Positions 1 to 12,096 of a stretch of DNA of 12,096 nt are shown one piece after another (within the stretch, counting starts at the first letter, position 1; each line of letters opens with the position of its first letter). Origin of the DNA: Myxococcota bacterium (lineage in GTDB: Bacteria; Myxococcota_A; Polyangia; Nannocystales; Nannocystaceae); the NCBI GenBank assembly GCA_039028615.1, contig JBCCHT010000088.1, forward strand, positions 1-12,096, in the 5' to 3' direction. The notes under the pieces are model-generated. The model saw only the letters and a list, made by a program, of their open reading frames with translations. It did not search any database and was not told the DNA's origin. A program made the translations under genes and the position numbers.

Positions 1-2047
1 CGCGGGCCTGTTTCGTCACCTCGTGAGAGGCCATGCTCGGCAACCCCAACGCGAGCAACGACTCGTGCAGTGGCTCTCCGCCTTCGTCGTCGAGCACGAA
101 CCGGTATCGCGACGTCATCAGAAGCCCTGACTTCGTTCGGTGTGCAAACCGAAACGCCCTCAGCACCACTCTCAGTCCATCGTGGTACGGCGTGCGAACT
201 CGGTGTGCACCGCCAGCGCTCGGCTCGAGCAGCTGCTCGAGGTCGTCGAGCACCAGCAGCAGCGGAGGGGCGTCTTCACTACCGAGGATGACCCCCAACG
301 CCGCTTCCAACGCGTCAGCATCCGAACCATCGGTTACCGTCACTTGCTCGGGCAATGCCCTGGCCAGCGCATCGAGCAGCTGTGGAGCGGTCCACGTACC
401 GTGCATCACCACGGGCGTATGCGTACGCATCCGTTGCACCACCCGGGCGGCGAGGCTCGACTTGCCTTGGCGCCCTACGCCATGCAAGAGCACGCCGCAG
501 GAGGAGCCCTCCCGGAGGGTGCGGACCACCGTCTGGAGCGGGCGTCGACGGCCCACGAATTGCTCGGGTCCGGCGATCGGCACCTGGCGTCCGGCATCGA
601 GGAACTGCGCTGGAGGGGCAGGACGAGGGCGAGGAGTTGCGCCGAGAGCCGCCAGGGGGCCGCCGCTCGAAGACCCGAGCAGCAGGCGTGCGAGGTGCCA
701 GTGATGACTGTGGCGGTTGTGGCGTTGCCACTGCTGGACGAGGACACGGCGAGCAACAGCCACCGCACGGGGCAGGGCATAGCCACCTGCGAGCCGAGTA
801 TACAGCGCCGCCGTGAACGCTGAGGCTTCGCCATCGTAGACGGAGCCAGCCCAGCCCAGAGCGGCGGGAATTCCTTCATCGACCAGGGCATGGGTGAGGC
901 TGTCAACTTCATCCCCTTGCGCGGTCAGGCACGCCGACAGGAACAGCAGACCGAGGTCCTTGATCGCGGGGCCAGTGTGTTCGAGTAGCGTCTCGGCATC
1001 GACCAGGTGCTTGCGCCCCATGTCGTCTTCGAGGGCGAGCACAGGGCGAGGCGGCTGGTCTCCATCGCGGACGATGGTGCCGTGACACGACAGATGCACG
1101 ACTCGTACGGGAGCTTGGGCGCCGAGCTGGCCGAGACGAACGCCGAGCTCCGCGGCGGTCCCCGTCTCTTCGACGAACAGCTCGAGGGGGAGGCCTTCGG
1201 TCGCCGTGAGGACAGCGGTTTCTTCCTGTTCGTAGTCCAACGCCGTGCTGCCTTCGGGCGCCGCAGCCATGAACAGCAAGGACAGCGCCTCTCGAGGTGG
1301 GGACGAGGGCGTGGGAGGGCCCAGGCGCCGCCATACGCTCAAGCGAATGCGGGGGTCGAGGGCTGCGCAGCCCATCGGGCCAGCGAGGAGCTCCCAGGGG
1401 GCGTGGTGGAGGGCCCGAGCTGCACTGTCCGTGGCTTTGGGCAGGACGACCTCGAGGCCGAGTGCCGTGGGGGTCTTTCGTAGGAGCGTCGACCACCAGG
1501 AGGACTCGCCATCGAGCCAGGCCGTGAGGCGGCGGCCGAGTTCTTCGAAGGTCTCGTGCTCTGCGTTGAGCTTGACGGCCTGCGCGTACTCTCGAGCCAG
1601 CTCGGTCAGAGCGGAGCCGTCGGCCTCGGCCCATGGGCGACGTATGGGTGCATTCGTGCCGTCGTCGATGTACAGCGCCCCCTCTCGGTATTCGACCCGC
1701 ACGAGGTGCAGGGCATCGCCGTCGTCGAGCTCGACCGCGGCGTTGAGCAGGCTGTGGGCATCGACCTCATGTAACGGGCGATGGACGAGCCAGCTGCCGT
1801 GGATGCGCAGCGAGTGCTGTGACTCGAGAGCATCGTGGGCCCACCGCTGAACCGCAGGCCAGCCCGCTTGAAACGACGAGCGAGCCCCTCGACCGACCTC
1901 GGCGAGCTGGGGCACCGACAACCGCAGTGTCGCGGTTGCCTCTCGTGCTTCCTTTTGTATCGCGTCGACCCCCAGCTCCGACCGCAACAACGCAGCAAGC
2001 TCCCGAGCGACCTTCGTCGCTTCTGTCCCTTCAACCTGGATCTCCAT
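1..2047 (-). CDS. CHAT (caspase/HetF) protease-STAND (NB-ARC/NACHT-like) NTPase protein, copy A; 3' end runs off the window
   Basis: Hand translation of the minus strand from ATG at 2047 (alternative in-frame ATG at 2059 with AAGGAGG upstream): MEIQVEGTEATKVAREL... No stop in the segments I translated, and colinear with open copy B. CHAT motifs HAPWELL, LSVLFMAAAPEG, LDYEQEE, VVHLSCHG, LLFLSACLT, GWAGSVYD. STAND motifs FVGRR, Walker A GVGRQGKSS, Walker B LLLVLDDLE, sensor-1 LLMTSR. Confidence 0.9.
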   Translation of the reverse strand, partial: MEIQVEGTEATKVARELAALLRSELGVDAIQKEAREATATLRLSVPQLAEVGRGARSSFQAGWPAVQRWAHDALESQHSLRIHGSWLVHRPLHEVDAHSLLNAAVELDDGDALHLVRVEYREGALYIDDGTNAPIRRPWAEADGSALTELAREYAQAVKLNAEHETFEELGRRLTAWLDGESSWWSTLLRKTPTALGLEVVLPKATDSAARALHHAPWELLAGPMGCAALDPRIRLSVWRRLGPPTPSSPPREALSLLFMAAAPEGSTALDYEQEETAVLTATEGLPLELFVEETGTAAELGVRLGQLGAQAPVRVVHLSCHGTIVRDGDQPPRPVLALEDDMGRKHLVDAETLLEHTGPAIKDLGLLFLSACLTAQGDEVDSLTHALVDEGIPAALGWAGSVYDGEASAFTAALYTRLAGGYALPRAVAVARRVLVQQWQRHNRHSHHWHLARLLLGSSSGGPLAALGATPRPRPAPPAQFLDAGRQVPIAGPEQFVGRRRPLQTVVRTLREGSSCGVLLHGVGRQGKSSLAARVVQRMRTHTPVVMHGTWTAPQLLDALARALPEQVTVTDGSDADALEAALGVILGSEDAPPLLLVLDDLEQLLEPSAGGAHRVRTPYHDGLRVVLRAFRFAHRTKSGLLMTSRYRFVLDDEGGEPLHESLLALGLPSMASHEVTKQAR
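1..2047. repeat. Left arm of 2047-bp imperfect inverted repeat (pairs with 10050-12096)
   Basis: Reverse complement aligns with 10050-12096 with no net indel (position p pairs with 12097-p). Bases 1-141 are identical to 11956-12096; first mismatch at 142/11955. Clear colinear similarity ends at about the start codons. Confidence 0.97.
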
Positions 2048-2088
2048 CTTCTTCTCCATGCTGCTGGCCCCCTCCTTCGTTGAATCCT

Positions 2089-4032
2089 TCACTCGCCGCT
2101 CTCCCGCTCGAGCCGAAGCTCCGGCAACGCGAACACCGAGAACGCCAACCGATCGGGATTCCCCTCCTCTCGCGCCCAGACCCGCGCCCGACGTGCCGCC
2201 TCCCCGAGCGTTACTCCTCCACCGATTTCGTCATAGAACGCCACCGCAAAACTCGAGGCGGTCGAGTCATACACAGACCACGAAGGAACGATCGTCGCCG
2301 CGACTCCAGCCTTGGACAAGACTCCCGCCCAACCGGCATGACCGGTCAACGAAGCCCGCCCACTGATTCCTGCTTGGCACGCGTTGATGAACACACAACT
2401 CCCGAGCAGTGGAGCTTTCTCTATGTCCTCCCCGATGCCGGGCGGAGCGACGTCCGTGACCAAGAGCGCCCGTTGGTCCTGCAAGAGGATCCGCCCCCCA
2501 TGCGGATCTCCGGTCGGCAGTACTCCGTGTGCCGCGAAATGCAGGAAGTGGCATCGGCCGTACTCCGCGTGCAGGTTGCCATCGAGGAAGTTTGAAACTT
2601 CGGCGAGACTGCGCATCTCGAGCGGGGCCTGCCCCAAGAGTCGTCGCAACGCCTTCCGCTCCTCGGTCACCGAAAGCCCGCCGTCGGTCGGCGCGACGAG
2701 CACGGCAGGCCCCACGCAAAGCCGGTCACGACGGCTACCTTCACGTAGCCATCGCGTGACTGCGAAACGTTCGCCGATGAAGAACCCCGAGTCCGAACCA
2801 CCGAGCCGGATCATCTCCCATGGGGCCCACGCATCGTCCGCTTCGATGTGCAGGGCCAGCTTCTCCGGGAGCTCGACCAACGCGTTCTGGATCTCGGGGG
2901 GTAGGAGAGTCTCTGCCAAGCTGAGGCCAACCCGCCGCAGTCGGCTCTCCAGCAATTCAGGTTTGAGCTGCGGATCGAAGTCGTGCTCGAACTTTCGGCA
3001 CTGCTCCACGAGAAGTTCCTGGATCGAAGCCGGTACTTCGTGCATCACGGAGATCCCAAAGGGAACGAGTTCGGCTGGGCCTAGCAAAGTCACTCGCCAG
3101 GCCACACTCGGCCCCTCGGAGAATCGACGCTCGATCCTCATCACGACCACGGGCTCCTTGGAGGTCGCCGACACCGCGAGTTCACCCGAGGCGACCCGAG
3201 GCTCCGAGGACGTCCGCTCCACCGCGCTGGCCTCTACGTAGATCGGGACCGCCAAGCGCAAGCGCTCGACGTGGTTGTACCGAAAGACAACGTCGACGCT
3301 GGCTAGCCCGCAGCGTCGACCCACCAGTCGAAAACTCAGCCGAGGCGATTGTCCGCTATCCGCGAGTCGAAGTTGTCCGATGGTCGGAACTCCATCCGCC
3401 TCGATGGCGGAGTCCTCGGGAAGGAGAACCTCGACCTCCATCTCCACTCGCTGGTCTTGTTCCACGACGACCGCCAGCTGCGGAGCACCCGGCGTCGACG
3501 GCTTGGAGTTGAAAACCACCGACACCTCGAAGGGTTCTCCCCGCACGACGGTGTCGGGGGCGTATACCTGGGGAAAGGCCTCCACGCGGCGAAGCGCAGG
3601 AGCGGGCTGGGGCTGAGGCTCCGTTTGCCCTTCGAGCTGGTCAATCTGGCTCGCGAGCACGTCAATGCGATGGCCCGACGGCTCCGCTTCGGAGTCAGGT
3701 CGAGCAACGGCATGGTCTCCATCTCCACGCCGAACCGTGGGGCCCTGGCCATGAGCACCCCCTCGACCGTGGGTGGCCGTACCGAGGAAGAGATCGCACT
3801 CGTACGCCTCGAAGAGTCGGTACAATGCGTGCAGGAGCCACTGCCAGTCCTCGTCCGTGGTCGGGCTCGGTACTCTTCGCAGCAATGAACCGAGCTCGCT
3901 GAGCAATGCCGACCATCGTGACTCCAGCCTTCGCTCGAGGTGCTCGCTTCGGGCGATGAAGGCATCGAGCGCTGACGAGACCCGGGCACTCGCAGAACCA
4001 GAAGAGTTTTGGGCGACATTGGATTGGGTCAT
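2089..4032 (-). CDS. CHAT domain protease (~647 aa) with an N-terminal helical region and a central beta-rich domain
   Basis: ORF 2089..4365 trimmed to the ATG at 4032 (MTQSNVAQ...) because the longer start overlaps the sigma gene; start uncertain. C-terminal CHAT motifs WAPWEMI, HFLHFAAHG, VFINACQAG, WSVYDSTASSFAVAFY, LGEAARRAR. Stop lies about 30-40 bp before the next gene, consistent with an operon. Confidence 0.88.
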   Translation of the reverse strand: MTQSNVAQNSSGSASARVSSALDAFIARSEHLERRLESRWSALLSELGSLLRRVPSPTTDEDWQWLLHALYRLFEAYECDLFLGTATHGRGGAHGQGPTVRRGDGDHAVARPDSEAEPSGHRIDVLASQIDQLEGQTEPQPQPAPALRRVEAFPQVYAPDTVVRGEPFEVSVVFNSKPSTPGAPQLAVVVEQDQRVEMEVEVLLPEDSAIEADGVPTIGQLRLADSGQSPRLSFRLVGRRCGLASVDVVFRYNHVERLRLAVPIYVEASAVERTSSEPRVASGELAVSATSKEPVVVMRIERRFSEGPSVAWRVTLLGPAELVPFGISVMHEVPASIQELLVEQCRKFEHDFDPQLKPELLESRLRRVGLSLAETLLPPEIQNALVELPEKLALHIEADDAWAPWEMIRLGGSDSGFFIGERFAVTRWLREGSRRDRLCVGPAVLVAPTDGGLSVTEERKALRRLLGQAPLEMRSLAEVSNFLDGNLHAEYGRCHFLHFAAHGVLPTGDPHGGRILLQDQRALLVTDVAPPGIGEDIEKAPLLGSCVFINACQAGISGRASLTGHAGWAGVLSKAGVAATIVPSWSVYDSTASSFAVAFYDEIGGGVTLGEAARRARVWAREEGNPDRLAFSVFALPELRLERESGE

Positions 4033-4163
4033 GGGATCGAGGCCGTAGTGGGCCGTCGTGACCCGTTTGATCAAATCGACGGTCGTTTTTCTTTCTTGGC
4101 TCGAGAACGCGGTTCTCGTGGATGCAGACGAGATTGCCGAGCTCGCCGCGGTACCATGGGGCA
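4033..4163. promoter_or_regulatory. Divergent promoter region with palindrome TTTGATCAAA (4066-4075) and a T-rich tract
   Basis: Intergenic space between head-to-head genes; locally AT-richer. Perfect 10-bp palindrome, flanking CCGTCG (4053-4058)/CGACGG (4077-4082) complementarity, and T tract at 4086-4097. No clear -10/-35 assigned. Confidence 0.4.
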
Positions 4164-4880
4164 ATGACGGAGAAGGGCTCTGTCCACCCCGAAGCACGAG
4201 CGCTGGCCTCCGAGCTCTACGCAAAACACAGCCAGGAGATCCTCGCGTTCTTTCGTCATACCCGCCGCATGACGATGGCGGACGCTGGCGACCTGATGCA
4301 GCAGACCTTTGCCGAGCTGCTGAAGACCCTGCGAAACAACCCGCAACTGAAGGTGGAGTACCCACGGGCGCTTTTGTTCAAGATCGCGCATCGACAGTTT
4401 GGGGCATACATCGAGCACAAAGGGCGCCACGGGGATCGCATGGTCGATGAGGAGATCGACGAACAACGATCCCTGGCCGAGTCGGATGACCTCCAGTTCC
4501 AGGCGAGCCTACGAGCGGACCAAAAGCTTCTACTCCGGGCGATGCGGCGACTGACCAAGGAGGATGGTGAGCAGGCCGATCGTGCGCGAGAGCGAGGCGA
4601 CGTCACCGAGAGTTGGACCATCAGCGAGCACCAACTGATCCTCTATCTGCGATTTTGGGTGGGCCTCACTCTGGCCCGAGTCGCTGAGATCTTGGATATC
4701 CCGCCCGGAACCCTCAGCGGCCGCCAGCGGCGTGCGCTGCAGCTGCTGCGGCATCGGGTTGCGGAGCTGGAGGCTCCAGACGAGGCTACCCGTGGTACCT
4801 CGACCACGATGCTCGAGCGCTGGCATGGGATCTTGGAGCGCGATGCGCTCGAGGTCCTCCCTGCGGAACCGAAGCCCTGA
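4164..4880 (+). CDS. ECF-type sigma-70 family RNA polymerase sigma factor (~238 aa)
   Basis: Region 2: ELYAKHSQEILAFFR...ADAGDLMQQTF...RALLFKIAHRQF. Region 4 HTH: LILYLRFWVGLTLARVAEILDIPPGTLSGRQRRALQLLR. Start placed at ATG 4164; upstream ATG at 4122 possible. Confidence 0.9.
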   Translation: MTEKGSVHPEARALASELYAKHSQEILAFFRHTRRMTMADAGDLMQQTFAELLKTLRNNPQLKVEYPRALLFKIAHRQFGAYIEHKGRHGDRMVDEEIDEQRSLAESDDLQFQASLRADQKLLLRAMRRLTKEDGEQADRARERGDVTESWTISEHQLILYLRFWVGLTLARVAEILDIPPGTLSGRQRRALQLLRHRVAELEAPDEATRGTSTTMLERWHGILERDALEVLPAEPKP

Positions 4881-4968
4881 CCGAGCGTTGAACTTTTTTG
4901 GGTTTGGAGTGATGGCTTCGGCGCCCGCGCCCACATAAGCAGCGAGCGGAGCAACAGTTCCCACGGCC

Positions 4969-7857
4969 ATGAGCACCACGAACCCACACGAGCCTTTCGG
5001 CGTACCGCCCGAGGACCTCGCCGCGCGCCGCCTCCGCGCTGATCGCGCGAAGGCGCTGTTCGGTGAGAACGGGCCGGATCCGATGAAGATCGGCCGGTTC
5101 ACGCTGACGCGGCAGCTCGGACGTGGGGGGCAGGGCTCGGTGTTTGTCGCCCACGATGACGAGCTCGATCGCAGCGTCGCGTTGAAGCGGCTGCACTCGT
5201 TCGATGCCAACAAAGGGCGCGATCTACGGGAGGAAGCCAAGACCCTCGCGCGCTTCAAGCACCCGAATGTGGTGACGGTACACGAAGTGGGACTCGACCC
5301 CATCGACGGTCCGTTCATCGTCATGGAACTCGTCGAGGGAAAACCCCTCGGGGACTGGCTCGAGGAAAAGCCAAGGCACTGGACCGAGATCGTGCGTGTC
5401 TTGATCCAGCTTGCGCGGGGCCTGGCGGCTCTGCACGAGCAACGTGTCATTCACCGCGACGTCAAGCCACCGAACGTCGTGATCGAGTCCACCGGACGAG
5501 TGAAGCTCGTCGACCTCGGCATCGCGTTTCTCGCACCCGATCCCACCACCGAAGTAGGGGCGGAGACTGACTTCGAGGCGAGGTCCCGCGGGTGGGGCAC
5601 GACTGGATACATGGCTCCCGAGCAAGTGGCGGGGGAGCGACTGGATCCTCGAACCGACCAGTACAGCTTCTTCGTTGTCGCCTACGAAGCCTTGTACGGA
5701 GCTCGGCCCCCGCTCGCCGTCAGCTCTGAGCTGGGTAGGCAACGTGGAGATGGTCGCAGCAACGGGGGCTCGAAACCTCGGACACGTGTGCCTCGGAGCC
5801 TGCGGCGCATTCTCGAGCGGGGTTTGGCCAAGGACCCATCGCATCGCTTCGAGGACATGGCGACCGTCGCGGCGCAGCTTGAGGACCTGGTTCGCAGGCG
5901 ACGGATGATTCCCTCCGCTGCTGTCGCGGCGGGGGCTTTGCTCGTAACCGCAGGGGTCGTCGCGACTTTGTGGCCAGGGGCGGAGTCTGCATGTGCACGC
6001 GGCGAGACTGGGGCATCGCTGTGGTCTCCCCAACGACGCAACGAAGTCCGGCACTCCTTCGTCGCGACCGGCTCCTCGTCGGCTGAATCGACATTCAGCG
6101 CGGTCGATGCCGTGCTCACCCGCTACACCGTCGAGCTGGACACGGCGCATGAATCGGCTTGCACCGCTCTGTCGCAGCGGGAAGAAGAACCCGCCGAGGC
6201 CCACGCCCGACTGGCCTGTATCGCGCGGGCGCAGGGGGTGGTCACCGACATGGTCGAACAGCTGGGCACGATCACTGCCGAAGAGCTCCCGGGCGCGCCC
6301 GAGAACCTGGCGTCGCTGCCCGAGTTCGCCTCGTGCACGCGGGTGGCTGGTCCAGAGCAGACCTGCGATCCCGGTCGGGCGGTGCCGGGATTCGCTGATG
6401 CGGTCCGAGCAATCGGTCTCAAGCTCCAGGCTGCGGAGGCGCGGATCATGCTTGGCCGTTATGCGGAAGGCATGGAGCTTGCCGAGGCTGCGATCGCGCT
6501 GGCGGAACCAGGACCGTTGACTCGACTGAGGGGGCAGGCTTGGCTCGTGCACGGACGACTCGCATACGAGAGCCAGCAGTTCGACATCGCCCTGCGCTCG
6601 CTCGAGGAAGCCTCGTCCCTGGCAGAGCAACAGGCCTGCGATGGGATTGCCGCCGAGTCCCTCGCGCTCATGGCCAAGGTTCGTGCGCTGCAGCCCAAGG
6701 GTGACGCAGAGGAGGCGTTACGTTGGTCTCAGCAGGCACTGGACAAGCTCGAGCGTCTGGGAGACGTGGGGCCTCGTCGTGCCGACGCCCTCAATAGCCG
6801 CGGCTTGGTGCTGCACCAGCGTCTGCAACGCTACGAGGAAGCCGACGTTCTGTATCGCGAAGCGGCGCGCCTGCGTGAGCAGTTTCTGCCGACGACTGCG
6901 TTGGCGTTGTCAGATACCCTGCTCAACCGCGGCGCGGTGCTGGCCGCGCTCGGTGACCTAGACCAGGCGGTCGAGGTGCTGGAAGATGCGCTGTCGATAC
7001 GAGAGGAAGCCCTAGGCTCCGATCACCCCGGCTTGTACAAGCTCCACCTCAACCTCGGGAACCGACGGTTGGAGCGAGGGCAGACGGCAGAGGCCGAGGC
7101 CTCGTTCCAGCGCGGCCTCGAACTCGCCAAGCTCGGCTTTGGTTCGCAGCACCACAAGATCGCAGCGCTTCATCTGAACTTGGCAGCAGCGCTGGACCAC
7201 CGTGGCGCGTTCGACCTCGCGCTGGAGCACGCGAGCGAGGCCATCGCGATCTACGACGACGCACTCGAAGCGGACGACCTGAGGCGAATCGATGCTTGGG
7301 GGGCGATGGCGCAAGTGCTGATCGATGCGAGCCGCCCCGTCGATGCCGTCCCGTGGGCGACCAAGACCTGGGAGTTGGTGCGCCAACATCCGCAGGCTAC
7401 GGCAATGGAGCGTACCCTCGGCGCGTATCGCCTTGGTTCCACGCATCGACAGTCGCCGAGCCCCGAGGCTGCGCTCGTTTGGTTCGACCGGGCGCTCGAG
7501 CTGTCCAACGAGCGAGCACCCGAGCCGGCCCAGGTCCCAAAGCAGATCGACGAGCTTCGGGCGCACGTGCATCTGGAACGGGGGGAGGTCTTGCTTTCGC
7601 TCGAGCGAGCACGCGAGGCGGTCGCTTCGCTGGCCGCAGCCGAACGCTGGTGGGCGGCGCAGGGCAGCAACCCCGAACGACTCGCTCACGCACGGTGGGG
7701 ACTCGGACAAGCGTTGGTGATGGAAGGCTCGAGCCCAACCGCCCGCGGACGTGCCGACGAACTCACACGCTCGGCGTTGTCATACTTCGAGAAAGGTGGC
7801 GACGAGAGGTGGATGCTTCGTGTCCGACAGTGGCGGACCGATCATGGATTGGAATAG
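4969..7857 (+). CDS. Hanks-type Ser/Thr protein kinase with a transmembrane helix and C-terminal TPR repeats (962 aa)
   Basis: Kinase motifs LGRGGQGSVF, VALK, HPNVV, HRDVKPPN, DLG, GTTGYMAPEQ, DQYSF. RRRR followed by hydrophobic AAVAAGALLVTAGVVATLW. TPR-like repeats, e.g. ADALNSRGLVL, AVEVLEDALSIREEALGSDHP, AEASFQRGLEL. Confidence 0.95.
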   Translation: MSTTNPHEPFGVPPEDLAARRLRADRAKALFGENGPDPMKIGRFTLTRQLGRGGQGSVFVAHDDELDRSVALKRLHSFDANKGRDLREEAKTLARFKHPNVVTVHEVGLDPIDGPFIVMELVEGKPLGDWLEEKPRHWTEIVRVLIQLARGLAALHEQRVIHRDVKPPNVVIESTGRVKLVDLGIAFLAPDPTTEVGAETDFEARSRGWGTTGYMAPEQVAGERLDPRTDQYSFFVVAYEALYGARPPLAVSSELGRQRGDGRSNGGSKPRTRVPRSLRRILERGLAKDPSHRFEDMATVAAQLEDLVRRRRMIPSAAVAAGALLVTAGVVATLWPGAESACARGETGASLWSPQRRNEVRHSFVATGSSSAESTFSAVDAVLTRYTVELDTAHESACTALSQREEEPAEAHARLACIARAQGVVTDMVEQLGTITAEELPGAPENLASLPEFASCTRVAGPEQTCDPGRAVPGFADAVRAIGLKLQAAEARIMLGRYAEGMELAEAAIALAEPGPLTRLRGQAWLVHGRLAYESQQFDIALRSLEEASSLAEQQACDGIAAESLALMAKVRALQPKGDAEEALRWSQQALDKLERLGDVGPRRADALNSRGLVLHQRLQRYEEADVLYREAARLREQFLPTTALALSDTLLNRGAVLAALGDLDQAVEVLEDALSIREEALGSDHPGLYKLHLNLGNRRLERGQTAEAEASFQRGLELAKLGFGSQHHKIAALHLNLAAALDHRGAFDLALEHASEAIAIYDDALEADDLRRIDAWGAMAQVLIDASRPVDAVPWATKTWELVRQHPQATAMERTLGAYRLGSTHRQSPSPEAALVWFDRALELSNERAPEPAQVPKQIDELRAHVHLERGEVLLSLERAREAVASLAAAERWWAAQGSNPERLAHARWGLGQALVMEGSSPTARGRADELTRSALSYFEKGGDERWMLRVRQWRTDHGLE

Positions 7858-7892
7858 CGACTCTGACAGACAACGGAAACAGCGAAAGAAAC

Positions 7893-8273
7893 ATGCCGCA
7901 AGAACAAGAAGTCGAGATCCTCGCCAAGATCGAGGGCAACAACGTGGTGTTCGATTCTGGACACGAGCAGCTTCGTCGCAACAGCGACGGCACCTGGACC
8001 TTCACCATTCTGGAGGGGACGCCCGCGCAAGTGGTGTTCCGGCTGGTTCCAACCGATGACGGTGGCTGCCAGCGAGTCGTGCAGTCCGCCGTTCGGGTGG
8101 ATGACAATACGTGGGGATCCTGGATTCCCTGGCCGAGCGACAAGCACCGCTCCCCGCCGTTCGAGCACGGCAAGGACTTTCGATTCGATGTCGCTCTATG
8201 CGACGGAACGCAGGATCCCCCTCGTGGAGGTGGGTTCTTCCAGGTTCGAGACGAAGGTGGAGGCGGAGATTGA
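7893..8273 (+). CDS. Hypothetical 126-aa acidic, beta-rich protein
   Basis: 3' part of ORF 7296..8273 from ATG 7893 (MPQEQEVEILAKIEG...), 35 bp after the kinase stop. Fills the gap between genes, has protein-like composition, and its stop overlaps the next start (TTGA). Confidence 0.8.
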   Translation: MPQEQEVEILAKIEGNNVVFDSGHEQLRRNSDGTWTFTILEGTPAQVVFRLVPTDDGGCQRVVQSAVRVDDNTWGSWIPWPSDKHRSPPFEHGKDFRFDVALCDGTQDPPRGGGFFQVRDEGGGGD

Positions 8274-10036
8274 CTCCGCGTCCCCCCGGGACTTCGCGAG
8301 CGCTGCTTCTGGGGGCACCGCTTGGCCAGCTCGGCGAGGTGCGAGAGAGTGTCAAACTCTTCGCCGAGCTGCTCGCGGAGCGGGGTTTCATCGTGACGGC
8401 GATCGTCGGCGACTCGGTAACCCACGCGACCGCGACCGCAGCGATGGGGAAGCTCCGTGACGATGCCCAGCCCGGGGATGCGATCGCCCTGTACTTCGCG
8501 GGGCATGGCTCGTTGTTTTGGGAAGAGGGCAACCCGGCGGAGGTGTATCCGGCATTGCTACCCATGGATGCTTACGAGTCGACAGCAGAGGATCTCCGCG
8601 TCATCGTTGGCATAGAACTCGAACGCTGGTTGGACGACGTGGTGCGGCGAGTCGCGGTGGACGGCAAGGCCAACGTCACCGTCGTGTTGGAGTGTTGCCA
8701 CTCCGCAGGGCTCGTCAGCGGCCGGGGGGTGGCCTCGGATGAACTCGAGCGCGTGCGAACGTTCGTAGGTCGAGTGCTGCAGGAGAAACAGACACGGCGG
8801 CGTCAGCGGAGGGACAGCGAAGGAGTTGGCTCTCAAGTTGTCCGGGTCGTCGCCGCGGGGACCTTCTCCCGTGCGTATGGTAGCGGGCCGCGAACAGTCG
8901 GCGGAGCCACGCGGGCAGTGATCGACTTGTTACGCAGGTTTCCGACCGAGCCGTGGCAGGCGTTGGAGTACCGCCTTCGAGCCAAGGTCCATCAGACCCA
9001 GCCTCACCAGTGGCCCGGGATCGAAGGTCCCCGAAAACGGCTTCCCTTCACGGTTGAAGAGCGCCCGTTGCCTGAGGGCGTTCTGCCGTGTGTCACGAGG
9101 GCAGGTGGTGGATGGACGTGTTTGCAGGGGGTGATGCTGGGCATCAACCCCGGGGGGCTCTACTGGATGACCCGTGATTTCGTGGCCTCGAACGGCACGC
9201 TGGCGCGGGTGAATGCCGACCGGATGTCGTTGACCCCGCTAGATGGCGAGAATGGTGCTCCGGGAAGGCTCGAGTGGGCGTTGCCGATGGCTCTGGCTAG
9301 CGGAGTCAGGGTTGCCGTTCGAGAGGAAGGAGCGAAACTCTCTTCGTCGATTCGGCAGAGGCTGGTCGATGTTGGCGTCCGGCTCGTGGGGCCGGAGCTG
9401 GCGCACCGCTCTTCTGGGCCGCTCATTCGGCTCGAAGTTCGGGCACGCTCATTCACGGTCATCGACTCCTGGGGGCAAACCGTTGGCCGGTGGACCGAAG
9501 AGCCAGAGTTGGAGGGGTTGTTGGCTTGCCTCGGTCGACTCGCTGAGATTGAGAGGTGGTTGTCAGTGAGCGACATGCCTTCGACACTCGCCGGGGAGTT
9601 CGAGTTACGGTGCCACGTTACAAGGGGGAACAATGGAGTCCGAGGGCAGAAGGAAGTTCTGACGCCTGGCTCCTTGCTGCACCAAGGGGATGAACTCTTC
9701 GTCGAGTTGCACAAAGTCGGATTCGAGCCCCGGCTTTTTCTCTCTGTGTTTCGTGTGACGGGGTCGCGCGAGATCGTGCACCTCACTGCGACCGAAGCAG
9801 GGGGGATACCATGCACGGGCGACTCCCCCGCGATGCTGCTGCCCGGAGAGAATGGGGTTCCTTTGCTCGGGCGCGATGAATTTGGCTCGGGAGAAGTCCA
9901 CGAAGCCTTGGTTGCGGTTGTAACGATACGGCCGTTCTCCATGCACTTGATGGAACGAGGGCCCGTCCGTCGGCGCCCCGGTGAGAGTCGCCCTGCTGTG
10001 GCCATGGTGGTTGTTCGATATCGACTGTCTGAATGA
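8270..10036 (+). CDS. Peptidase C14 caspase-family (meta/orthocaspase-like) protein (~588 aa) with a C-terminal DUF4384-like beta domain
   Basis: RALLLG first strand, DAQPGDAIALYFAGHGS (catalytic His), NVTVVLECCHSAG (catalytic Cys), QWPGIEG. Probable TTG start at 8270 with GGAGG at 8259-8263. C-terminal LHQGDELFVEL...LFLSVFRV...EALVAVVTIRP resembles DUF4384 by eye. Confidence 0.88.
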   Translation: MTPRPPGTSRALLLGAPLGQLGEVRESVKLFAELLAERGFIVTAIVGDSVTHATATAAMGKLRDDAQPGDAIALYFAGHGSLFWEEGNPAEVYPALLPMDAYESTAEDLRVIVGIELERWLDDVVRRVAVDGKANVTVVLECCHSAGLVSGRGVASDELERVRTFVGRVLQEKQTRRRQRRDSEGVGSQVVRVVAAGTFSRAYGSGPRTVGGATRAVIDLLRRFPTEPWQALEYRLRAKVHQTQPHQWPGIEGPRKRLPFTVEERPLPEGVLPCVTRAGGGWTCLQGVMLGINPGGLYWMTRDFVASNGTLARVNADRMSLTPLDGENGAPGRLEWALPMALASGVRVAVREEGAKLSSSIRQRLVDVGVRLVGPELAHRSSGPLIRLEVRARSFTVIDSWGQTVGRWTEEPELEGLLACLGRLAEIERWLSVSDMPSTLAGEFELRCHVTRGNNGVRGQKEVLTPGSLLHQGDELFVELHKVGFEPRLFLSVFRVTGSREIVHLTATEAGGIPCTGDSPAMLLPGENGVPLLGRDEFGSGEVHEALVAVVTIRPFSMHLMERGPVRRRPGESRPAVAMVVVRYRLSE

Positions 10037-10049
10037 GGGAGGAGACGAG

Positions 10050-12096
10050 ATGGAGATCGAGATTGAAGGGACAGAAGCGGCGAAGGTCGCTCGGGAGCTT
10101 GCGGTGTTGTTGCGGTCGGAGCTGGGCGTCGACGCGATGCTGGCGGATACGCGAGAAGGGGCCGCGACAGTACGGTTGTCGGTGCCCCAGCTCGCCGAGG
10201 TTGGCCGAGGGGCTCGTTCATCGTTTCAAGCGGGCTGGCCTGCGGTTCAGCGGTGGGCCCACGATGCTCTCGAGTCGCGGCACACGCTGAGCATACACGG
10301 TAGCTGGCTCGTGCATCGCCCGTTGCATGAGGTCGATGCCCACAGCCTGCTCAACGCCGCGGTCGAGCTCGACGACGGCGATGCCCTGCACCTCGTGCGG
10401 GTCGAATACCGAGAGGGGGCGCTGTGCATCGACGACGGCACGAATGCACCCATACGTCGCCCATGGGCGGAGGCCGACGGCTCGGCTCTGACCGAGCTGG
10501 CTCGAGAGTACGCGCAGGCCGTCAAGCTCAACGCAGACCTCCAGACCTTCGAGGAACTCGGCCGCCGCCTCACGGCCTGGCTCGATGGCGAGTCCTCCTG
10601 GTGGTCGACGCTCCTGCGCAAGACTCCGACGGCACTCGGCCTCGAAGTCGTCCTACCCGAAGCCACGGACGACACAGCTCAGGCCCTCCACCAAGCCCCC
10701 TGGGAGATCCTTGCCGGCCCCATGGGCTGCGCAGCCCTCGACCCCCGCATTCGCCTGAGCGTATGGCGGCGCCTGGGTCCTCCCACGCCTTCGCCCCCAC
10801 CTCGAGAGGCGCTGTCGGTGCTGTTCATGGCAGCGGCGCCCGAAGGCAGCACGGCGTTGGACTACGAACAGGAAGAAACCGCCGTCCTCTCGGCGACCGA
10901 AGGCCTCCCCCTCGAGCTCTTCGTTGAAGAGACGGGCACCGCGATGGAACTCGGCGTTCGTCTCGGCCAGCTCGGCACCCAAGCGCCGGTGCGAGTCGTC
11001 CATCTATCGTGTCACGGCACCATCGTTCACGATAAAGACGAGCCGCCTCGCCCTGTGCTCACCCTCGAAGACGAGGTGGGGGGCGAGCACTTGGTCGATG
11101 CCGAGATGCTGCTCGAACACACCGGCCCCGCGATCAAGAACCTCGGTCTACTGTTCCTGTCGGCATGTCTAACCGCGCAGGGGGATGAGGTCGACAGCCT
11201 CACCCATGCCCTAGTCGACGAAGGGATCCCCGCCGCTCTGGGCTGGGCCGGCTCCGTCTACGATGGCGAGGCCTCAGCGTTCACAGCGGCGCTGTATACC
11301 CGGCTCGCAGGTGGCTATGCCCTGCCCCGTGCAGTGGCCGTCGCTCGCCGTGTCCTCATCCAGCAGTGGCAACGAAGTGGAGGCCACAGTCATCACTGGC
11401 ACCTCGCACGCTTGCTGCTCGGGTCTTCGAGCGGCGCCCCCCTGGCGGCCCTCGGCGCAACCCCTCGCCCTCGCCCCGTGCCTCCGGCTCAGTTCCTCGA
11501 TGCCGGACGCCAGGTGCCGATCGCTGGACCTGAGCAATTCGTGGGCCGTCGACGCCCGCTCCAGACGGTGGTCCGCACCCTCCGGGAGGGTTCCTCCTGC
11601 GGCGTGCTGCTGCATGGCGTGGGGCGCCAAGGAAAATCGAGCCTCGCCGCCCGGGTGGTGCAACGCATGCGTACGCATACGCCCGTGGTGATGCACAGCA
11701 CGTGGACCGCTGCGCAGCTGCTCGATGCGCTCGCCAGTACCATGCCCGAGCGGGTGACGGTCCCCGACTGCCCCGATGCTGACGGGTTGGAAGCGGCGTT
11801 GAGGAGCATCCTCGACCCCGAGGATGGGCCCCCGCTGCTGCTGGTGCTCGACGACCTCGAGCAGTTGCTCGAGCCGAGCGCTGGCGGTGCGCACCGCGTT
11901 CGCGCGCCGTACCACGATGGACTGAGGGCCGTGCTGAGGGCGTTTCGGTTTGCAAACCGAACGAAGTCAGGGCTTCTGATGACGTCGCGATACCGGTTCG
12001 TGCTCGACGACGAAGGCGGAGAGCCACTGCACGAGTCGTTGCTCGCGTTGGGGTTGCCGAGCATGGCCTCTCACGAGGTGACGAAACAGGCCCGCG
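10050..12096 (+). CDS. CHAT protease-STAND NTPase protein, copy B; 3' end runs off the window
   Basis: ATG at 10050 after GGGAGGAG, 13 bp after the caspase stop. Hand translation is open to the edge (682 codons): MEIEIEGTEAAKVAREL...QAPWEIL...VVHLSCHG (His 11013-11015)...LFLSACLT (Cys 11166-11168)...FVGRR...GVGRQGKS (11616-11639)...LLLVLDDLE...LLMTSRY. Confidence 0.92.
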   Translation, partial: MEIEIEGTEAAKVARELAVLLRSELGVDAMLADTREGAATVRLSVPQLAEVGRGARSSFQAGWPAVQRWAHDALESRHTLSIHGSWLVHRPLHEVDAHSLLNAAVELDDGDALHLVRVEYREGALCIDDGTNAPIRRPWAEADGSALTELAREYAQAVKLNADLQTFEELGRRLTAWLDGESSWWSTLLRKTPTALGLEVVLPEATDDTAQALHQAPWEILAGPMGCAALDPRIRLSVWRRLGPPTPSPPPREALSVLFMAAAPEGSTALDYEQEETAVLSATEGLPLELFVEETGTAMELGVRLGQLGTQAPVRVVHLSCHGTIVHDKDEPPRPVLTLEDEVGGEHLVDAEMLLEHTGPAIKNLGLLFLSACLTAQGDEVDSLTHALVDEGIPAALGWAGSVYDGEASAFTAALYTRLAGGYALPRAVAVARRVLIQQWQRSGGHSHHWHLARLLLGSSSGAPLAALGATPRPRPVPPAQFLDAGRQVPIAGPEQFVGRRRPLQTVVRTLREGSSCGVLLHGVGRQGKSSLAARVVQRMRTHTPVVMHSTWTAAQLLDALASTMPERVTVPDCPDADGLEAALRSILDPEDGPPLLLVLDDLEQLLEPSAGGAHRVRAPYHDGLRAVLRAFRFANRTKSGLLMTSRYRFVLDDEGGEPLHESLLALGLPSMASHEVTKQAR
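10050..12096. repeat. Right arm of 2047-bp imperfect inverted repeat (pairs with 1-2047)
   Basis: Direct comparison with the reverse complement of 1-2047. The ORF track also shows mirrored shadow ORFs (33..704+ versus 11489..12064-). Confidence 0.97.

Follow-up and report, generated by a model that had tools for sequence, protein, structure and literature searches.

The DNA analysed here (the window) is 12,096 nucleotides (nt) long and makes up the whole of contig JBCCHT010000088.1 (C88) of a Myxococcota bacterium of the family Nannocystaceae, whose genome assembly (GCA_039028615.1) comprises 12.3 Mb in 94 contigs. It carries two closely related NLR-like genes, L and R, which lie in inverted orientation at its two ends and bracket a core encoding an ECF sigma factor, a membrane Ser/Thr kinase with TPR repeats, a small conserved protein and a caspase-family protease (Table 1). 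This core is present twice in the genome, and each copy is bracketed by an inverted NLR-like pair. NLR-like STAND receptors, conflict systems centred on caspases and kinase-linked ECF factors are each known; their combination, and the repeated inverted twinning around it, was absent from the literature searched, which excluded most subscription papers and all supplements.

Table 1. Features of the window (coordinates are positions in the 12,096-nt stretch)
Feature	Position	Strand	Remarks
Left arm of inverted repeat	1..2049		cut by contig end
Right arm of inverted repeat	10048..12096		11956-12096 identical to 1-141
Start of identical tract common to both arms	1..141		at least 141 bp; assembly fork
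NLR-like gene L, 5′ part	2..2047	-	unnamed N-terminal domain (~120 amino acids), CHAT protease, STAND NTPase; possible start 2059; 3′ part off contig
NLR-like gene R, 5′ part	10050..12095	+	90.6% amino-acid identity to gene L; 3′ part off contig
Second CHAT-protease gene	2089..4032	-	directly upstream of gene L; open reading frame open to 4365; probable start 4032
Promoter-like motif GATCA-N17-CAY	4047..4072	-	upstream of CHAT gene; related loci have it before NLR and ECF genes; occurrence in window alone not significant
ECF sigma factor	4164..4880	+	subfamily restricted to window's genus among 73 family genomes at E 1e-18
Ser/Thr kinase	4969..7857	+	hydrophobic segment at residues 316-334; TPR repeats
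Small conserved protein	7893..8273	+	126 residues; C-terminal GGGxFxVxxEGG motif; weak DP-EP-like lead only
Caspase-family (Peptidase_C14) protease	8111..10036	+	retains His and Cys motifs; uncertain start; lies directly upstream of gene R

A first-pass annotation made from the sequence alone had described the arms as outward-pointing colinear inverted copies whose similarity ends at about the ATGs, and BLASTN bore out both points. Positions 1-2057 align with 12096-10041 at 91.2% identity, with 180 mismatches and one gap at the far upstream edge, and similarity drops off just upstream of the start codons. The ungapped arms (1-714 and 723-2049 against 11383-12096 and 10048-11374) are split only by an 8-nt block of mismatches and are separated by a spacer of 7998 nt. 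Besides the tract of at least 141 bp, stretches of 100, 62, 59 and 56 bp are identical between the arms. The codon alignment of 2047..2 (minus strand) with 10050..12095 (plus strand) has 682 columns, no gaps and 64 amino-acid differences; with no net indel, a crossover between the arms would, as the annotation had reasoned, keep both frames and join each 5′ half to the other gene's 3′ half.

The products of genes L and R both score above the cut-off for Pfam CHAT and under it for AAA_16, and both retain the CHAT His/Cys motifs as well as Walker A and B; they thus have the N-terminal effector and P-loop STAND NTPase that characterise STAND receptors. The ratio of nonsynonymous to synonymous divergence (pN/pS) of the pair is 0.25, a value indicating purifying selection, and on this basis both copies look functional. 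As for the parts that run off the contig, a TPR family was present in 99 of 100 full-length homologues of the window NLR (in a search limited to proteins of at least 1195 residues), and TPR C-termini, which had been predicted, are likely for both genes. The closest homologue, P0001, begins with a sequence resembling the C-terminus of the caspase, so the link between caspase and NLR recurs outside the window. A metagenome scan with the window NLR confirmed none of 204 stretches. Stand-alone small genes with a hydrophobic helix were seen upstream of CHAT-STAND genes at two related loci (L023:4032-4445 and L019:6253-6639); their products are weakly similar to the N-terminal domain of the window NLRs (E 8e-5 and 4e-10, respectively). 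These small genes may be EACC1-like; they have no Pfam match. An EACC1 identity for the window domain itself was considered and found neither Pfam nor atlas support.

The core genes have a narrow distribution. The ECF subfamily occurs in 5 of 73 family genomes, all of the window's genus, and titled records with the same subfamily belong to Myxococcota and Nannocystaceae, including Paraliomyxa miuraensis; PMC9960870 reports a short-read draft of the Paraliomyxa record and, in the part of it covered here, mentions neither caspase nor sigma factor. The small protein was found at 7 places in 5 of 401 class genomes, again all of the window's genus, and in 31 database matches, which come without genomic context; a viral scan with it gave no hit among 44. 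Tandem repeats join the small protein to the caspase-like region in one database protein, P0106, a fusion which suggests that small protein and caspase act together. As the annotation had stated, there is no sign of an invertase: none of the six main window proteins is a recombinase, and a genome-wide search for tyrosine recombinases gave 10 matches, none of them on C88 or on a second contig, C82, discussed below (serine recombinases and the unseen flank lay outside this search). The window contains no tRNA.

The second core of the genome lies on contig C14 (G000:C14:1-14979, locus L017). It has two divergent ECF genes and is flanked by outward-pointing SIR2-like-CHAT-STAND-TPR twins with 73% identity across 3600 nt. 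The left twin's TPR end was recovered at the start of contig C13 (C13:1-760) and has 86.6% nucleotide identity to the right twin. In a genome-wide survey of opposite-strand paralogue pairs within 25 kb (32 rows, some of which are shadow frames), the window and C14 pairs were the most similar, at 89% and 68% amino-acid identity. Inverted paralogue pairs on C1 and C4 were inspected and are unrelated to the core.

Related loci extend this pattern. At L023, in another genome of the genus, inward-pointing CHAT-STAND-TPR twins from a third family enclose the core; their 5′ halves share 74% of 2236 nt and their 3′ halves 95% of the following 1543 nt. At L026 two SEFIR-domain effectors lie inverted between core modules (70% identity over 207 nt), and at the metagenome locus L049 two genes that we read from their sequence as TIR-like-STAND-WD40 stand in direct tandem upstream of the core closest to that of the window (54% identity for the kinase). 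A homologous pair is hence present in 5/5 cores with both flanks visible: three inverted pairs bracketing the core, one inverted SEFIR pair and one direct tandem. A further two cores are on short contigs. Identity is 48-91% between the partners of one locus and 23-32% between NLRs of different loci, apart from one TPR-only match at 39%, which indicates that the pairs arose separately. The inverted layout recurs, on C14 and at L023, with mosaic twins; the pair at L049 is a direct tandem, and the system therefore does not require invertibility. Among 20 loci around caspase homologues, those outside the genus had no large inverted pair. Gene order around the core varies among relatives. At L020:2611-3060, upstream of the kinase, we noted 66 nt left over from the small gene, matching the intact copy at 91%, as well as a remnant ECF gene; they adjoin an insertion-sequence-like gene and are signs of local rearrangement.

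Divergence between the inverted twins is unevenly distributed. In a clustering test on fourfold-degenerate sites, p was 0.0002 for L023, 0.0018 for C14 and 0.031 for the window, as against 0.46 for the direct pair at L049. The L023 pair is two-tiered, with a synonymous divergence (pS) of 0.39 in codons 1-760 and 0.05 in codons 800-1290, and has identical runs that include 337 bp and 192 bp. In the window arms, fourfold differences are fairly even up to codon 600 (2-9 differing sites per 50 codons) and fall to 2/28 in codons 601-650 and 0/17 beyond; if all mismatches were placed at random, an identical run of 141 bp would have p=0.0005, a value not corrected for selection. Patchy synonymous divergence in the three inverted pairs, and its absence from the direct pair, suggests gene conversion focused on the sensor half. 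In both the L023 and the C14 pair the 3′ half is the more alike part, whether it faces the core or points away from it, and a flip would for this reason change less than had been supposed. The sensor ends do still differ: the C14/C13 TPR ends disagree at 51/250 residues. Changes in the L023 TPRs are clustered, with a pN/pS of 1.59; positive selection on them was considered and was not significant (p=0.096).

Both ends of C88 stop inside the same 141 identical bases, and an overlap of exactly 141 nt is shared by 27 other contig-end pairs of the assembly. The ends thus mark an assembly-graph fork rather than a biological boundary, and their match was rejected as a sign of inversion. A contig break at an identical tract of unseen length is expected with or without inversion. 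The probable source run is a marine metagenome, and the host is presumably a marine member of the Nannocystaceae. In that metagenome an independent contig spans 1847-10250, including both arm starts, without differences and at a depth of 19.8. Pieces of the left and right arms assemble separately in that run, and a collapsed arm piece has a depth of 36.6, about twice that of the core; together with the spanning contig, this depth indicates that two arm copies are linked to one core. These are short-read contigs only, from three runs of one study. No strand-changing joint is listed for the probable source run, which carries no weight: such contigs break at every shared tract, so the arms stay unphased. 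At window position 1403 the run contig (depth 22.5) replaces the window's G by T, the allele of the right arm, with a change from His to Gln; the neighbouring left-arm alleles seem to be retained. Variation in the population, an error of assembly or a micro-conversion could each account for this difference.

Contig C82 carries a candidate for one of the missing 3′ halves. Its right end encodes a 134-residue TPR end that is 67% identical to the end of P0001 and matches 83/100 family homologues. The stub at the left end (L072:3-434) is a TPR C-terminus of another class, which matches 1/100 family homologues and for which no N-terminal partner is visible at any contig end. The missing middle of the window genes and a second C-terminus of the right-stub type were not in the assembly; a search for the missing C-terminus among shorter database proteins gave 2 matches, neither from the window locus, and among cluster members 4 of 9 queries were found, all from the same contigs. 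The stretch of C82 from 10 to 16.7 kb is syntenic with the flank of L023 on an 80-kb contig of the same-genus genome, from which it follows that the window and L023 islands probably occupy the same chromosomal site. As seen at L044:906-2078 and L045, the L023 island has helicase-like genes on one side; on the other side is a tyrosine integrase, after which come an FHA-sigma54 activator and kinases.

A possible regulatory signal emerged from the related loci. The motif GATCA-N17-CAY stands before both NLR genes, both ECF genes and the kinase of the C14 locus (5 matches versus 0.78 expected; 0/200 shuffles) and before three gene starts at L023 (4 matches versus 0.56 expected; 0/200 shuffles). 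We regard it as a lead to the ECF promoter. Gene order, with the ECF gene directly upstream of the kinase gene, further suggests that the kinase controls the sigma factor, by analogy to the kinase-associated ECF factors described in the part of PMC8999054 covered here. With this candidate promoter, the core has the look of an inducible conflict system in marine myxobacteria, one that did not turn up in the literature searched.

With moderate confidence, we read the window as a copy of a Nannocystaceae conflict or immune island that is restricted to one genus, with paired effectors that undergo occasional general recombination and with inversion as a possible by-product. What the loci display directly is a constant core next to an effector slot whose content varies: as a rule it holds two paralogues, NLR-like or TIR/SEFIR, whose family changes from locus to locus. 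The kinase would sense a cue and activate the ECF factor, which would transcribe the effector genes from GATCA-N17-CAT promoters, leading to protease-based defence or cell death. The effector pair may arise through local duplication, and inverted copies would survive since recombination between them cannot delete the core. The copies would then keep exchanging DNA by general homologous recombination, mostly as gene conversion in the 3′ sensor half. Some exchanges should end in a crossover, which would turn the core round and give effector and sensor variants new partners; this would happen occasionally, as a side effect, and not as a programmed switch.

Several observations weigh against this interpretation. 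The window itself has a single GATCA-N17-CAY match (0.51 expected), before the operon of the CHAT gene and gene L, and enrichment of the motif at L017 and L023 is partly circular, the motif having been derived from these loci. Region 2.2 of the ECF alignment reads DAxD or EAxD (DAGD in the window) and has no STTA motif of the ECF43 type; both ECF phosphorylation and a defence function are suggested by gene context, and PADLOC has no family matching the window NLR, CHAT, ECF or small protein. The L020 core has a single NLR, on a locus whose upstream side is cut at about 2.7 kb. The conversion signal in the window is weak (sum-of-runs p=0.031, longest-run p=0.062), its tract being cut by the contig end; the clustering test has one direct-repeat control, L049; and short-read assemblers can merge isolated single-nucleotide differences of near-identical copies, which could inflate the identical runs at L023.

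Other explanations put different weight on inversion. It is conceivable, though doubtful, that in myxobacteria of this genus the layout amounts to an invertase-free route of diversification in which whatever NLR family arrives beside the core is duplicated in inverted orientation, and RecA-dependent conversion and inversion shuffle effector and sensor halves in a population under one sigma regulon. A working switch without an invertase, in which RecA crossovers turn the 8-kb core round so frequently that populations contain it in either orientation, with four combinations of receptor halves, and selection maintains the inverted layout for that reason, we consider unlikely. The colinear frames and the identical tracts between the arms would permit it, and inverted pairs recur at three loci whose NLR families are unrelated; differences persist in the 3′ halves of related pairs (51/250 residues for C14/C13, and the clustered, non-significant changes at L023), and gene order around the core differs among relatives. 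On the other hand, nothing in the short-read contigs, which cannot phase the arms, points to two orientations; both copies have full 5′ ends, leaving no silent cassette, and the L049 pair is in direct tandem. Arms that differ at 9% of positions should exchange slowly by RecA. The spacer of about 8 kb also exceeds the 2588-bp threshold given in the part of PMC9881135 covered here.

At the other extreme, the window could hold a static, fairly recent inverted duplication with no later exchange, whose terminal identical tract is a conserved stretch and whose two copies are kept for dosage or as subunits of mixed oligomers. Fairly even synonymous divergence over most of the arms, the pN/pS of 0.25 and the marginal window p-values all fit this picture, yet the near-absence of fourfold differences at the distal codons, the improbability of the 141-bp run and the clearly mosaic sister pairs do not, and we judge it decidedly unlikely. 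Closure of C88 and C82 into a circle of about 32 kb, with the two genes then ending in very different sensors, gains something from the inward-pointing TPR stubs of two different classes at the ends of C82, and no other contig end has an open STAND-TPR gene lacking a partner. The left stub, however, matches 1/100 family homologues against 83/100 for the right one, and synteny of C82 with the L023 flank suggests a chromosomal site; the circle is very improbable. That the assembler placed alleles of a single gene from two strains on either side of the core is barely credible: the genome is a short-read metagenome bin and the contig ends at a fork, but the spanning contig, the separately assembled arm pieces and the doubled depth of the collapsed piece largely refute such an artefact, and the same layout is seen on C14 and at L023.

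Our preferred reading, an island with recombining effector pairs, can be set beside several known systems. The arms resemble those of programmed inversions and shufflons, as presented in part in PMC9881135, in being long inverted repeats within two homologous coding sequences whose ends can be swapped in frame; repeats of at least 44 bp inside homologous coding sequences, one mark of such inversions, are present in the window. The gene-altering inversions in that source, again as far as it was covered, show a short spacer (at most 2588 bp), one truncated silent copy and a nearby recombinase. The window, by contrast, has a spacer of 7998 nt and no truncated copy, both copies having full 5′ ends and the arms being 91%-identical gene halves, and it has no nearby recombinase (the serine type was not searched for). 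By these marks it is not a programmed shufflon. Of the shufflon-like diversification put forward in the annotation, what stands is that arms of this kind appear to exchange DNA and that the layout recurs; the three marks of programmed inversion are missing. The main text of PMC9881135 mentions neither CHAT nor Myxococcota and names no NLR targets (candidate tables are in its supplements, which were not covered).

In domain order, the window proteins are like the bacterial effector-STAND-TPR proteins (Avs and relatives; PMC13581612, covered in part), with an N-terminal enzymatic effector, a STAND NTPase and, probably, the C-terminal TPR sensor; unlike these, they form a paralogous pair around a kinase, ECF and caspase core and match no PADLOC model. 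The main text of PMC13581612 does not mention CHAT or recombination. A constant caspase core with a variable effector slot (STAND, TIR/SEFIR, PNPase or EAD1) is also a feature of the EACC1 and EACC2 systems, and EACC2 neighbourhoods include an ECF sigma factor together with a TPR-containing protein (PMC7159879 and PMC8195603, both covered in part). In the window, however, no EACC1 membrane gene precedes an EACC1-type caspase, there is no Pfam EACC match and the caspase scores 23.9 against an EACC1-type cut-off of 140; its core also contains a membrane kinase plus an unnamed small protein, while the effectors are separate paired genes. The placement of the ECF gene directly upstream of the kinase gene, with no anti-sigma gene, recalls ECF43 EcfP/PknT, whereas sigma region 2.2 reads DAGD instead of STTA and the output appears to be protease and NLR genes (PMC8999054, in part). 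Two inverted NLR genes are likewise found in the head-to-head NLR pairs of plants, but these, in the part of PMC12258605 covered, are adjacent and consist of a highly diverged sensor and helper, while the window twins lie 8 kb apart, are 90.6% identical in amino acids and both have intact catalytic motifs. Y-chromosome palindromes offer a further parallel, their inverted arms being homogenised by conversion.

Three unrelated NLR families occur as inverted twins around the same core, with a mosaic divergence unlike that of the direct pair, and the locus offers a concrete setting for asking how bacterial NLR-like receptors renew their specificity and whether exchange between paralogues, or inversion, contributes to their diversity. 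Were the invertase-free device real, it would be a bacterial counterpart of eukaryotic NLR cluster evolution. Elsewhere in the genome, and unrelated to the core, we noted at G000:C4:68752-79681 a divergent paralogue pair (about 800 aligned residues, 51% identity) around genes read from their sequence as a sigma54-type activator and a prenyltransferase-like gene. A 10.4-kb element was also present in two copies (G000:C10:142-10581 and C64:34071-44497) that are 88% identical, each beside a tyrosine integrase.

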